From the NCBI RefSeq assembly GCF_003334335.1, contig NZ_QOWQ01000010.1: a stretch of 64,000 nucleotides of DNA; one strand, 5' to 3'. Below, in pieces: positions 22,914 to 24,041 of the stretch. Positions within the stretch are counted from its first letter, which is position 1, and the number at the start of each line of letters is the position of its first letter. The translations under genes were made by a program, and so were the position numbers. The notes beneath the pieces were generated by a model. That model made no database searches, was not told the origin of the DNA, and was given only the letters and a program-made list of their open reading frames with translations. This DNA is from Escherichia coli (GTDB lineage Bacteria > Pseudomonadota > Gammaproteobacteria > Enterobacterales > Enterobacteriaceae).

Positions 22914-24041
22914 TTAACGGCGTCTATAGCCTTCCTCTAGCACCGCCTGTGTTCGAACGAGTTCATCTGCGAGTCGTTTCTCATCAGGTAGTTGCATCTT
23001 ATATTCGCTTGCCAGAACGGTGTTAGGCAAACCTGCCAGAGCATAATGCGCTTCTCCGGCTCCTTTCTCTGCACAGAGAACCAGACCGATGGGCGGATTT
23101 TCATCCGGTAGCGTCCAGTGCTCTTTGGCGTAGTTGAGATACATATTCATCTGTCCGGCATCGCTATAGCTGAATTTGCCCACTTTTAGATCGACGATTA
23201 GCAGGCAGCGTAAACGGCGGTGGAAAAACAGCAGATCGACACGAAACCAGTTGTCATCAATGCGTAACCTTCGCTGCCGACCAACAAAGGCAAAATCATC
23301 CCCAAGTTCCAGCATGAAATCCATCAGGTGGTTGATCAGCGCCTCCTCAAAATCGGATTCTGAATATTCATCTTTCAATTCCAGAAATTCGAGCACAAAG
23401 GGATCGCGTATCGCCTGTTGCGGAAGAATATGCGTCTCGGCAGGAGCGTGTTGTTGCAGCATGGCTGATTTGTCATGTGACAGTAGTGTCCGCTCATAAA
23501 ACTGGGTCGCAATTTGCCGCTCTAGCTGGCGAACAGACCAGCCACAGCGGAGCGTCTCTTTTTCATAAAAGCTGCGGGCGTCAGCGTTTTTAACGGAAAG
23601 TAAACGGACGTAGGTGGACCTGGGCAAGGGGAAAGATTTGGCAGACAGCGTCTGCCAAATCTTTGCCGATGGGAATTCTGCAGACGGTGTCTGCGGAATT
23701 CCCAATGGTGTTAATTCGCCAGACATTGTCTGGCGAATTTCAACATGTTGAAAAAAGAGGTAAAAAAGCCTCATTTGGCGTAAGTTTTTTGCAGAGAACC
23801 CACGCTTATACCTTAGACATAAATCCTTTGATAGTCGCTTGATTAGCTGCGCACCATACGCAGCCCTGGCCTCGCCACCTTGTTCAAATTCGACAATTCG
23901 TCGGCCAATTTCCTGGTACGTCGCGGTCATTAACGCGTTAACGCTACGTACCGTTTCCGTCCGGGCGCTATCGACCAGATGAATAATACCGTCGTGGATT
24001 TGCTGGTAGCCTGCTGTGGTTCCTTCTGAGAGCGATTCCAT
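22914..24041 (-). CDS. yhcG: DUF1016-family protein YhcG (predicted PD-(D/E)xK nuclease-like fold)
   Basis: 375-aa ORF; C-terminal region has a D...D-x-K arrangement (RVDLL...LLIVDLKVGK) compatible with a PD-(D/E)xK core; N-terminal region carries a triplicated palindrome-encoded segment. Confidence 0.75.
   Translation of the reverse strand: MESLSEGTTAGYQQIHDGIIHLVDSARTETVRSVNALMTATYQEIGRRIVEFEQGGEARAAYGAQLIKRLSKDLCLRYKRGFSAKNLRQMRLFYLFFQHVEIRQTMSGELTPLGIPQTPSAEFPSAKIWQTLSAKSFPLPRSTYVRLLSVKNADARSFYEKETLRCGWSVRQLERQIATQFYERTLLSHDKSAMLQQHAPAETHILPQQAIRDPFVLEFLELKDEYSESDFEEALINHLMDFMLELGDDFAFVGRQRRLRIDDNWFRVDLLFFHRRLRCLLIVDLKVGKFSYSDAGQMNMYLNYAKEHWTLPDENPPIGLVLCAEKGAGEAHYALAGLPNTVLASEYKMQLPDEKRLADELVRTQAVLEEGYRRR
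23632..23664. repeat. CAGAC-N3-GTCTG palindrome unit 1 inside yhcG (perfect 15-bp arms)
   Basis: aaagatttggcagac-agc-gtctgccaaatcttt. Confidence 0.85.
23671..23703. repeat. CAGAC-N3-GTCTG palindrome unit 2 inside yhcG (15-bp arms, one mismatch)
   Basis: gggaattctgcagac-ggt-gtctgcggaattccc. Confidence 0.85.
23713..23739. repeat. CAGAC-N3-GTCTG palindrome unit 3 inside yhcG (perfect 12-bp arms)
   Basis: aattcgccagac-att-gtctggcgaatt. Confidence 0.85.

Follow-up and report, generated by a model that had tools for sequence, protein, structure and literature searches.

An in-frame palindrome in yhcG, ancestral to the DUF1016 family and preserved as DNA symmetry

The yhcG locus and its palindromes

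The window analysed here, a stretch of 64 kb of Escherichia coli DNA, carries yhcG on its minus strand (22914..24041), a coding sequence of 375 aa supported by the ORF call, Pfam and PADLOC. Its product contains a DUF1016_N domain (aa 19-184) and a YhcG_C PD-(D/E)XK nuclease domain (aa 208-360), and the Pfam scores (PF17761, 1.3e-36; PF06250, 1.6e-56) place it in the DUF1016/YhcG family, for which 21,241 cluster representatives exist. PADLOC assigns it to the candidate defence family PDC-S02 (2.8e-131), and PDC-S02/DUF1016 genes are located within R-M operons (see also PMC9881135). The closest folds of the C-terminal domain are those of NucS/EndoMS and Bax1; no sequence relatives of YhcG were found in the PDB. 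In the window, YhcG has R141 and T143 where the family has a nearly invariant W and H, and it may therefore not be fully functional.

Three palindromic units lie within this gene, all on the minus strand. Unit C (23632-23664, centre 23648) is aaagatttggcagac-agc-gtctgccaaatcttt with perfect 15-bp arms and encodes KIWQTLSAKSF; extended to 23629-23667 it forms 17 of 18 possible pairs and is the strongest short-loop palindrome of the window. Unit B (23671-23703, centre 23687), gggaattctgcagac-ggt-gtctgcggaattccc, encodes GIPQTPSAEFP and has 15-bp arms with a single C.A/T.G mismatch (C.A on the sense strand). Unit A (23713-23739, centre 23726), aattcgccagac-att-gtctggcgaatt, encodes EIRQTMSGEL and is a perfect palindrome, which on the sense strand reads 13-1-13 as AATTCGCCAGACA-A-TGTCTGGCGAATT, with the dyad centre on codon position 1. 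The distances between the centres, from C to B to A, are 39 and 39 bp, in frame within yhcG, and gaps of 6-12 nt separate adjacent palindromes. The units share a mutual identity of only 70-78%, each being self-complementary. The first-pass annotation had described these three in-frame palindromes at 39-bp spacing, and its positions, frame and quoted peptides were all reproduced. In a structure model of YhcG, pLDDT falls below 50 solely at aa 103-134, the part encoded by the palindrome units. The 9-13 residues that a unit encodes are thus probably a disordered loop according to the model, and the very low confidence there suggests that the protein tolerates almost any sequence at this place.

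Two further copies outside the coding sequence, neither assigned to a strand, had been missed. One, GATTCTGCAGAC-act-GTCTGCAGAATC (22868-22902), lies between the stop codons of the convergent genes yhcH and yhcG; its arms match the left arm of unit B, and its flanks have no homology to the internal units. In strain AR13438 this copy carries a compensated change from ctg/cag to ctc/gag. The other, ATTCGCCAGAC-aca-GTCTGGCGAAT (30010-30038), begins 15 nt 3' of the gltD stop codon at the edge of the gltF-yhcADEF block; it has the same arms as unit A, and stop codons occur on both flanks in the IRQT.SGE frame. The block that holds it (24170-30050) is missing in O157, A34 and AR13438. All five copies of the window fall within 7.2 kb around yhcG, three of the five in the coding sequence.

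The motif CAGACNNNGTCTG occurs five times in the 64-kb window vs an expectation of 0.03, with none of 100 shuffles reaching at least five, and the extended palindrome pattern likewise occurs five times (0.23 expected). Twelve short-loop palindromes of 11 or more matched bp are present, where shuffles yield 0.4; five of the 12 belong to the yhcG palindrome family and the top two are yhcG units. Folding of the yhcG mRNA strand gives three hairpins (-67.8 kcal/mol, z = -10.4). As DNA, single yhcG units form hairpins of -13.8 to -15.7 kcal/mol (z -7.5 to -8.1), and yhcG-type palindromes as a whole have 11-17 matched bp, loops of 1-3 nt and hairpin energies of -10.8 to -15.7 kcal/mol (z -5.8 to -8.1).

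Tandem Repeats Finder made no call on the array, as the units are too divergent. The best Rfam match was mir-266 with 23.6 bits vs a gathering score of 80 (E = 0.11), and all Rfam matches were generic hairpin noise. A promoter and terminator scan of 22700-24300, a region that includes four of the five copies, made no call at any palindrome there; the fifth, the gltD-side copy, has no T-run by eye. Several familiar explanations were dismissed: a CRISPR array, given the differing arms, the gaps of 6-12 nt and the open reading frame in a conserved gene; an intrinsic terminator, given that no GC-rich stem with T-run was called in 22700-24300; and a symmetric operator for one dimeric DNA-binding protein, given that the half-site sequences differ among the three units.

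Conservation across the DUF1016 family

The palindrome is a property of the family. Its consensus of 27 bp, R-ATTC-NN-NNNNN-A-N-T-NNNNN-NN-GAAT-Y with the dyad centre on the middle N, lies inside the DUF1016_N coding sequence; the centre coincides with the first position of a codon and in most cases precedes the Leu codon of the conserved motif LSWSHY by 12 nt. Seven distant genes (38-45% amino acid identity) have palindromes at the same site, and five of the homologue palindromes were forecast from peptides and then confirmed on the DNA. In an unbiased set of 38 DUF1016 genes, chosen via motifs in the C-terminal part, the odd palindrome that ranked strongest in the whole gene was centred within a 43-nt window (~4% of the gene) directly 5' of the LSWSHY codons in 22 cases. 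Codon phase was 0 in 28 of 29 and the distance to the anchor exactly 12 nt in 22 of 29. Approximately 80% of the set retain the palindrome at the site, and about a fifth have just a decayed one. The same site, phase and 12-nt offset hold in homologues down to ~30% identity.

Among the matches listed, 87 of 120 loci (72%) with the E. coli-type pattern, from many phyla, have it inside DUF1016 ORFs, and most of the others are copies beside DUF1016 genes or in gene remnants. Palindromes persist in such remnants at loci L037, L094 and L105, and in unrelated phyla (L039, L073, E. coli) extra copies gather immediately before or after DUF1016 genes; the external copy at L073 is identical in 33 of 33 positions, with flanks just ~50-60% identical. 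Palindrome arrays outside genes occur at L032 and L039. Most homologues have one unit. Where there are several in a gene, the spacings in other taxa were 33, 39, 45, 57, 87 and 138 among the matches listed, all multiples of 3, in positions unfiltered for phase.

One palindrome at this site is therefore ancestral to the whole DUF1016/YhcG family. This corrects a reading as a repeat peculiar to E. coli that had entered the gene, and the distribution of the 120 listed loci equally speaks against a repeat family dispersed genome-wide. No mention of the palindromic nature of the yhcG site or of its family-wide conservation was found in the literature.

DNA symmetry and the encoded peptide

Symmetry at the site extends to bases that the peptide leaves free. 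Synonymous resampling lowered the number of matched pairs from 9.2 to 4.6, with p<=0.01 in 25 of 38 genes, and free positions were Watson-Crick paired in 89/95 and 82/95 sites at a nearly uniform base composition. Across 31 genes, 88.6% of the cells were paired vs 61.6% in shuffles (0 of 500 reaching the observed score), and pairing in slid registers was just 27-36%. Changes were double-sided in 11 of 13 pairs of these genes, and arms also differ in a compensated manner between E. coli alleles (cgc/gcg to gtg/cac, ctg/cag to ctc/gag). Residue pairs track base complementarity in the combinations QT-S, QP-A, YT-C, HA-R, DA-R.L and ST-W.R, and one position switches between K, E and Q, which share only the codon bases -AA.

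Several features are of a DNA type. G.U mismatches were not in excess over A.C mismatches (6 vs 7, 17 vs 20 and 8 vs 17), which argues for symmetry at the DNA level. Symmetry reaches the centre and leaves loops of just 1-3 nt. Of 95 centre bases, 42 are C and 47 are G, and E. coli strains differ by act/agt; both observations would fit spacer inversion, although an inversion of a 1-nt centre is indistinguishable from a C-to-G transversion. The central codon is usually NTG. The outer ATTC/GAAT and the apical CA-N-TG are far more conserved than the NN positions.

These results support that the symmetry of the DNA, not the encoded peptide, is preserved at the yhcG/DUF1016 site, since the arms covary between units, between alleles and within the family, synonymous sites follow the symmetry, and differing peptides are encoded by equally symmetric DNA. 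The first-pass annotation had argued that distant DUF1016 members with the same three peptides and no dyad would point to a repeat at the protein level; the opposite was found, with differing peptides and the dyad kept. Its view of the dyad symmetry stands with regard to conservation, whereas selection would be only one possible cause: the missing G.U bias, the loops of down to 1 nt and the C/G-dimorphic centre fit template switching at the DNA level, which does not require selection on a hairpin.

The reading as a protein repeat I-x-Q-T-x-S-x-E-F with incidental DNA symmetry is refuted by the same data, and we give it practically no credence. Q-T-x-S is indeed the majority peptide among close relatives, but the unrelated peptides YTVC, HAVRG, DALRL, STVWR, HPLGA and IVSALMRQL lie on equally good palindromes. 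Moreover, codon resampling halves the symmetry that synonymous positions follow, the K/E/Q alternation has nothing but its -AA in common, the peptide sits in the very low-confidence loop of the model, and palindromes survive in non-coding remnants.

Copy number variation, rearrangements and the LSPA-6 marker

The number of units in yhcG is three in the window and in K-12, ~2.5 in AR13438 and one in O157:H7 TW14359, which lacks 78 bp (2 x 39) compared with the window; the unit retained is of A type, and unit B is absent. Together with the single unit of most homologues, this agrees with the in-frame expansion and the copy-number variation in 39-bp steps anticipated in the first-pass annotation, and makes the array a coding VNTR, with tandem in-frame units whose copy number is polymorphic among strains. 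Strain 18KM2445 has a deletion between units, and at L032 an array of 38 x 78 bp is found.

Four rearrangements end in palindromes. The breakpoint of the A34-type replacement is at 23636 in the left arm of unit C, and the deletion in E. albertii runs from palindrome to palindrome, its partner being the copy at 22868-22902. In Escherichia, the segment for the rest of the protein, including the nuclease domain, is bounded by two palindromes and was independently deleted (E. albertii) and replaced (A34-type). A 101-aa ORF annotated as 'transposase' beside the truncated yhcG of the A34 type had no match in NCBIfam, Pfam, PADLOC or PHROGs, and we therefore make no link between it and a targeting of the palindrome. 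The AR13438 allele contains a divergent patch of ~200 nt with 98-99% identity on either side, which led us to reject the array as a recombination boundary. As this patch reaches ~60 nt past the palindromes, it may have been imported by recombination, as opposed to local hypermutation. Frameshifted alleles and alleles with a 2-bp deletion (for the latter see also PMC8733641) are in circulation, and truncated database proteins start at the palindrome site slightly more often than elsewhere (12 of 39 within residues 120-159), an excess too small to carry weight.

The length polymorphism of yhcG is already exploited in the LSPA-6 typing of O157:H7, with amplicons of 394 bases in lineage I and a variant of 392 bases (PMC3514354, PMC8733641, PMC4609728). 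It is the same locus, present in 4,424 E. coli genomes, at which the difference between one and three units seen here amounts to 78 bp. These three papers treat it as an anonymous indel marker and do not describe palindromes, hairpins, covariation or other taxa. The statement that the family had not been catalogued consequently holds for the palindromes and their conservation, which we did not find in the literature, but not for the length polymorphism, known as LSPA-6 yhcG (PMC3514354, PMC8733641). The palindrome units are the molecular basis of this marker, and its homoplasy is predicted.

Discussion

The balance of the evidence tips towards an ancestral hairpin-forming palindrome that is kept symmetric by template switching and has been expanded by slippage. 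During replication, both arms would pair as a hairpin on single-stranded DNA, and intrastrand template switching would copy one arm from the other, whereby a mutation in a single arm would be erased or passed to its partner. Under such a process the palindrome would stay perfect while its sequence drifts, giving rise to covariation, C/G flips at the centre and a lack of G.U tolerance. Hairpins and short shared cores would also favour slipped or ectopic joining, which could lead to the gain or loss of units in frame (periods of 39, 60 or 78 bp) and to stray copies in the flanks, let the palindrome outlive the decay of the surrounding gene, and produce deletions and replacements with ends in palindromes. 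The net outcome would be a self-perpetuating, hypervariable and rearrangement-prone spot in the gene of a candidate defence nuclease, and no benefit to the cell would be needed. The site has the properties of a quasipalindrome, a short inverted repeat with a short spacer that is capable of forming a hairpin and undergoes concerted, double-sided arm changes. Template switching is established for perfecting and conserving short inverted repeats, including conserved perfect ones in Proteobacteria, and for inverting their spacers (PMC5941160, PMC7202029, PMC8794818, PMC8604942); the published evolutionary survey of such repeats covered non-coding ones only and does not mention yhcG.

Nevertheless, retention, unequal base conservation and restriction to one family hint at an added constraint specific to sequence or structure. 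A purely neutral drive poorly explains ~80% retention at the exact site across many phyla, and it leaves unexplained both the conservation of ATTC/GAAT and CA-N-TG and why the DUF1016 family in particular is concerned.

A selected cis-acting DNA structure, a single-stranded hairpin or cruciform with a function tied to the DUF1016 nuclease family, is accordingly a serious, if less probable, alternative, in which template switching would merely restore symmetry. The structure could be a putative binding or cleavage site of the encoded PD-(D/E)XK nuclease, serving autoregulation, self-marking, targeted recombination or cassette exchange, or it could form a contingency switch at which indels turn a toxic defence gene on or off. 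It is conceivable, though we would not count on it, that the hairpin or cruciform in DUF1016/PDC-S02 genes is a signal recognized by their own nuclease or by a partner. As such a signal, it might at the same tentative level control the expression of its own gene, act as an on/off switch, or steer the exchange or loss of the gene's downstream portion with its nuclease domain. It would fit that the palindrome is kept at a very high rate across phyla, always in one place and one phase, that conserved outer and apical bases stand beside freely covarying inner ones, in line with the logic of structure-recognized sites such as integron attC, and that NucS/EndoMS and Bax1, to which the C-terminal domain is most similar, are nucleases specific for structures or mismatches. 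Further support comes from the extra copies flanking DUF1016 genes in unrelated phyla, from the independent deletion (E. albertii) and replacement (A34-type) of the palindrome-bounded segment, from the circulation of frameshifted and 2-bp-deletion alleles (PMC8733641), and from the membership of the family in the defence-island candidates PDC-S02 within R-M operons (PMC9881135). However, half-sites vary at several positions among the units of a single gene, which makes it unlikely that one protein would recognize every unit by its sequence. In addition, about a fifth of the unbiased genes have only a decayed palindrome, physical instability alone predicts rearrangements at palindromes, and the window YhcG with its R141/T143, perhaps not fully functional, yet keeps three perfect units (the one mismatch of unit B apart).

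Far less probable is a selected RNA hairpin in the yhcG mRNA that would pause ribosomes, be targeted by an RNase or bind the encoded protein and thereby control translation or stability. The three very stable hairpins of the sense RNA (z = -10.4), the central codon that is usually NTG and covariation of a kind usually accepted as proof of RNA structure would fit it. Against it, G.U is no commoner than A.C on the sense strand and few G.U pairs appear in the formal count, symmetry extends up to central loops of 1-3 nt, which is atypical of selected RNA hairpins, and isolated or remnant copies are perfect in either orientation outside any mRNA context. There was no Rfam match, no terminator-like T-run and no conserved arm resembling a Shine-Dalgarno sequence, the last of which also led us to set aside a translation start within the loop.

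It is more doubtful still that a small mobile element of palindromic type, similar to REP, MITE or RPE, inserted in frame into yhcG and also into nearby intergenic DNA, and this reading is largely refuted. Two copies in the window, without homology in their flanks, lie at 3' gene ends, a location typical of REP sequences, arrays exist outside genes (L032, L039), and RPEs of Rickettsia show that in-frame palindromic insertions can be tolerated. But the same site, phase and 12-nt LSWSHY offset down to ~30% identity show a palindrome inherited with the gene, not inserted. Furthermore, 72% of the listed pattern-bearing loci lie inside DUF1016 ORFs and many others are remnants or neighbours, all five window copies are confined to the 7.2 kb around yhcG, and neither target-site duplications nor an association with a transposase were seen, the 101-aa 'transposase' ORF matching no family. 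Core sites of serine or tyrosine recombinases were set aside because of the odd centre and the lack of a spacer, and -1 frameshifting, abutted transposon ends and a toxI-like RNA antitoxin because no feature supported them.

Covariation is commonly taken to prove a selected RNA structure; at this site it appears in protein-coding DNA, within a family of very large size and across many phyla, with features of a DNA type. If template switching alone sustains the palindrome, it is perhaps the clearest natural case of a heritable, self-correcting palindrome over deep time; it would call for caution in covariation-based RNA discovery and would explain the unalignable part of DUF1016_N and the frequent splitting of these genes in databases. 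If the palindrome is functional, it offers a concrete handle on an uncharacterized candidate anti-phage nuclease within many R-M and BREX loci and would represent a new kind of cis element, one that encodes protein, keeps a fixed codon phase, covaries as DNA and is conserved in bacteria of many phyla.

Comparison with known systems

REP/BIME sequences are extragenic, occur in hundreds per genome and are linked to the RAYT Y1 (HUH) transposase. The yhcG palindromes resemble them as hairpin-forming palindromes of ~30 bp, two external copies of which lie at 3' gene ends or between convergent genes, whereas yhcG-type copies are mostly intragenic, apparently few per genome and tied to a PD-(D/E)XK nuclease gene. 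They are not the extragenic, many times dispersed sequences that define REP, with three of five window copies in the coding sequence and 87 of 120 listed loci in DUF1016 ORFs, and the units are unlike the REP consensus, a GC-rich imperfect palindrome with a conserved 5' tetranucleotide.

Palindromic elements of Rickettsia (RPEs) measure ~100-150 bp, are restricted to their lineage and occur in frame in many unrelated genes, adding a tolerated peptide. They share with yhcG palindromic DNA in frame inside coding genes and the tolerated addition to the protein; in contrast, the yhcG unit has 27-33 bp, is bound to one family and one site, is passed on together with the gene and differs in the number of tandem copies. 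The attC sites of integrons, of 57-141 bp and located 3' of cassettes, are the substrate of IntI; their symmetry is imperfect and interrupted by extrahelical bases. The likeness here would be one of logic only, with conserved outer boxes, variable yet complementary inner arms and recognition as a folded single strand, while the yhcG palindrome has perfect arms, is intragenic and has no integrase nearby. In the type I HsdS subunits of EcoR124I/II, central direct repeats of 12 bp without dyad alter the spacer length of the target site through their copy number. In both cases a gene associated with R-M carries repeats in tandem and in frame, and changes in their number alter linker length, but only the yhcG units have dyad symmetry.

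Close parallels exist with the quasipalindromes of template switching (Ripley model; the thyA and lacZ QP reporters of E. coli), with which the yhcG palindrome has in common short arms, a tiny spacer, the hairpin and concerted arm changes, as well as the lack of G.U intermediates and the nature of a hotspot for mutation and rearrangement; its variable centre would fit their spacer inversion. Unlike known quasipalindromes, it is intragenic, at one site and in one phase of a single protein family, across many phyla and down to ~30% identity.

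Palindromes in yhcG

The yhcG gene (22914-24041, minus strand) is a 375-aa ORF that encodes two domains, DUF1016_N (aa 19-184) and the PD-(D/E)XK nuclease domain YhcG_C (aa 208-360). Along 361 bp, this region matches several E. coli genomes at 100% identity and K-12 at 99.7%. The three palindromic units at 39-bp spacing reported in the first-pass annotation are present exactly as described, with centres at 23726 (unit A), 23687 (unit B) and 23648 (unit C). The CAGAC-N3-GTCTG core occurs five times in the window (0.03 expected), and the strongest two short-loop palindromes of the whole 64 kb are yhcG units. 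Two external copies, at 22868-22902 between the stop codons of yhcH and yhcG and at 30010-30038, 15 nt past the gltD stop, have the same extended arms as the yhcG units. Folding predicted a stable DNA hairpin for each unit, and such hairpins may form in vivo; the mRNA strand folded into three hairpins (z = -10.4). Additionally, upstream of yhcG (about 24041-24170), the divergent stationary-phase ncRNA G0-10703 is reported to share 128 bp with the yhcG 5′ UTR (PMC7967276); it does not overlap the palindromes.

A palindrome at a fixed position in the DUF1016/YhcG family

Searching 1.84 billion cluster representatives, we found 21,241 relatives. Where the E. coli units lie, full-length relatives have short peptide repeats numbering from 0 to 6 or more, with quite different residues, the pairings of which (QT.S+G, QP.A+G, YT.C+K/R/S, HA.R+G, DA.R+L, ST.W+R, HP.G+A) all fit in-frame palindrome coding. 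DNA was examined for seven family genes of 38-45% identity, for five of which the palindrome had been predicted beforehand from the peptide alone. All seven contained palindromes with 8- to 16-bp arms at the predicted place, centred on codon position 1 (phase 0), and in most of them this was the only strong hairpin of the locus.

As an unbiased set, 80 loci were retrieved via C-terminal-domain motifs only, which left 38 non-redundant genes with identities as low as about 30%. In 22 of them (about 4% expected), the gene's strongest odd palindrome was centred in the 43-nt window just 5′ of the codons for the conserved LSWSHY motif, and in 30 it lay within 250 nt; most "weak" genes still had a two-mismatch quasi-palindrome. 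Eight or more bp matched in 29 genes; 28 of the 29 were in phase 0, and in 22 of the 29 the centre was exactly 12 nt from the Leu codon. Synonymous-codon resampling lowered the matched pairs from 9.2 to 4.6. In 31 dyad-centred windows, 88.6% of cells were paired vs 61.6% after shuffling (0/500) and 27-36% in slid registers. The pairing is somewhat inflated, since each window was selected as the best palindrome of a short stretch; the fixed offset and the slid-register controls speak for a real signal. Double-sided changes occurred at 11 of the 13 pairs, and G.U pairs were rare. A repeat of the peptide as such is refuted: the dyad is what is preserved, as the first-pass annotation had proposed, since distant homologues differ in peptide and retain the symmetry.

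Further palindromes were seen in some relatives. Members of an "IVSALxRQL-SWTHF" subfamily carry two very similar palindromes about 108 nt apart (gene nt 264 and 371 in locus L183, 357 and 465 in L194), and the DUF1016 N-domain may contain an internal duplication. In the YhcG model, the part of the protein that the first of the two encodes is helical; hence, the palindrome is not always within a disordered loop. Another, unrelated type (taaagaca-GTA-tgtcttta; peptide SKDxxSL) occurs in locus L007 (3143-3341), where it and the main palindrome take turns at a 60-bp period, in a codon phase that varies between copies and never equals that of the main palindrome.

Distribution of the pattern across genomes

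A scan for TTCNNCAGACNNNGTCTGNNGAA in one genome each of 100,044 species gave at least 120 loci, those listed spanning, among others, Proteobacteria, Bacteroidota, Firmicutes, Planctomycetota, Acidobacteriota, Verrucomicrobiota, Chloroflexota, Actinomycetota, Cyanobacteria and Nitrospirota. Of the 120 listed loci, 87 had the pattern inside an ORF matching the DUF1016 profile. Among the 95 in-gene sites listed, 91 were in phase 0, and two inner positions left unspecified had near-uniform base composition yet were complementary in 89 and 82 sites. Over the same listed sites, symmetry reached ±13 and then fell to background, C and G were equally frequent at the central base, and mismatches showed no excess of G.U over A.C. 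Most of the other 33 listed loci also have the family features that the pattern left unspecified. It adjoins a DUF1016 gene in L039, L073, L036 and L106, and L037 (upstream of fdhE), L094 (upstream of hsdS) and L105 are remnants of decayed genes; a few listed matches are chance occurrences in another conserved gene. The external copy in L073 is identical to the internal unit (33/33) within a duplicated fragment that has otherwise decayed to about 50-60% identity. In L032, a Rhodothermales MAG, a 3-kb array (2433-5471) of about 38 78-bp units, each with the palindrome, immediately precedes an intact, normal DUF1016 gene in the same orientation and reads through as one open frame of 1013 codons, made up of 26-aa repeats (SILQTVSVESGSGVNSRLVSMNRGRY). 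Locus L036, besides its DUF1016 gene, holds three copies of an unrelated GC-rich REP-like palindrome, aagaagcccctccc-A-gcgaggggcttc (9691, 10781, 11037).

The constancy of site and phase largely refutes a mobile element. A hairpin selected in the yhcG mRNA is unlikely as well, because G.U tolerance is absent, loops can be as short as 1 nt, copies remain perfect outside any mRNA context, and neither an Rfam signal nor, in the scanned 22700-24300, a terminator signal was found. What remains is a dyad at the DNA level.

Variation and rearrangement in Escherichia

The yhcG region is present in 4,424 of 5,426 complete E. coli genomes. O157:H7 TW14359 keeps one unit and lacks 78 bp (two units), which agrees with the predicted copy-number variation in 39-bp steps. 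Three other independent rearrangements also have ends in palindromes. In 18KM2445, a deletion runs from one yhcG unit into the next and the gene is annotated as frameshifted. In A34-type strains (~15% of an evenly spaced sample of matches), 470 bp of unrelated DNA replace 22856-23635, with breakpoints in unit C's left arm on the right side and, on the left side, at a distance of 12 nt to the external copy. In E. albertii, a hybrid palindrome joins an internal unit to the external copy, and the whole nuclease domain is deleted.

The A34-type replacement (L002 2531-3000; also L003) removes the external palindrome and, at the 3′ end, two-thirds of yhcG; its 101-aa ORF, a "transposase" in RefSeq (WP_000639208.1), matched no family in Pfam, NCBIfam, PADLOC or PHROG. 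The E. albertii NBRC 107761 junction (L019, about 3450-3485) connects 22886 to about 23680, a loss of about 0.8 kb comprising most of yhcG downstream of the array; the hybrid is now imperfect, and the two BLAST alignments with the window share 20 nt inside it.

About 10% of genomes carry an AR13438-type allele, with 61-63% identity in 200 nt around the array and 98-99% on both sides. Self-complementarity is kept in its units although the arms differ (gtg/cac vs cgc/gcg), and in its external copy ctg/cag has become ctc/gag, a compensated change.

The gltF-yhcA/D/E/F fimbrial block (24170-30050), whose gltD-side edge bears one of the palindrome copies, is missing in TW14359, A34 and AR13438, where gltD, with an ordinary terminator-like hairpin after it, is 184 bp upstream of yhcG. 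18KM2445 (L003 3546-6049) is a further variant of this junction, with genes for a VWA-domain and a DUF5682 protein where other strains have gltD beside yhcG. At codons 141 (23619-23621) and 143 (23613-23615), YhcG of the window reads LPRSTY vs the family L(S/P)WSHY: residue 141 is R (AGG) here and W (TGG) in the O157 and AR13438 alleles, and residue 143 is T rather than H in all three. The K-12-type protein may be functionally impaired.

Protein context

The AlphaFold2 model of YhcG has a mean pLDDT of 81 and drops below 50 only at residues 103-134, i.e., the three units, which form a loop joining two N-terminal-domain helices. Structure comparison placed the C-terminal domain closest to NucS/EndoMS and Bax1; no solved sequence relative was found. 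YhcG matches the PADLOC candidate defence family PDC-S02, and homologues lie within R-M operons, in line with PMC9881135. Many PDC-S02 sub-models matched by 22917-24041 are N-terminal-only, ending around aa 101-113, and others C-terminal-only, starting around aa 122-142; representative proteins show a slight excess of starts at residues 120-159. Splits or assembly errors at the palindrome site may be frequent in this gene.

Maintenance of the palindrome

Template switching between short inverted-repeat arms, a well-established process, perfects repeats, passes changes between arms and inverts spacers; proposals hold that it conserves perfect inverted repeats in Proteobacteria and keeps RNA stems intact (PMC5941160, PMC7202029, PMC8794818, PMC8604942). 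Here, it would correct mismatches and transfer changes between the arms, and the loop, bounded by constrained codons, would accept nearly any sequence. Together these would produce covariation and the C/G centre, hypervariability with symmetry kept, and in-frame expansions, for which slippage is a candidate mechanism; they would also let copies survive in remnants and place rearrangement endpoints in palindromes. With modest confidence, we attribute the palindrome to such maintenance in a sequence-tolerant loop.

Template switching alone leaves unexplained the near-universal retention, the stronger conservation of outer and apical bases and the occurrence in this particular family. For these reasons we also consider, tentatively and as rather unlikely, a selected structure-specific function tied to the nuclease or to swapping of the gene's downstream portion. 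Of the earlier suggestion that the symmetry itself is under selection, the preservation of a DNA-level dyad stands; selection on the structure is the less likely reading.

The palindrome is not described in the papers examined on DUF1016 or YhcG, and its palindromic nature and family-wide conservation appear unreported. The length polymorphism of E. coli yhcG is known as a typing marker: it is the LSPA-6 yhcG locus of O157:H7 typing, with a 394-base lineage I amplicon and a circulating 2-bp-deletion allele (PMC3514354, PMC8733641).
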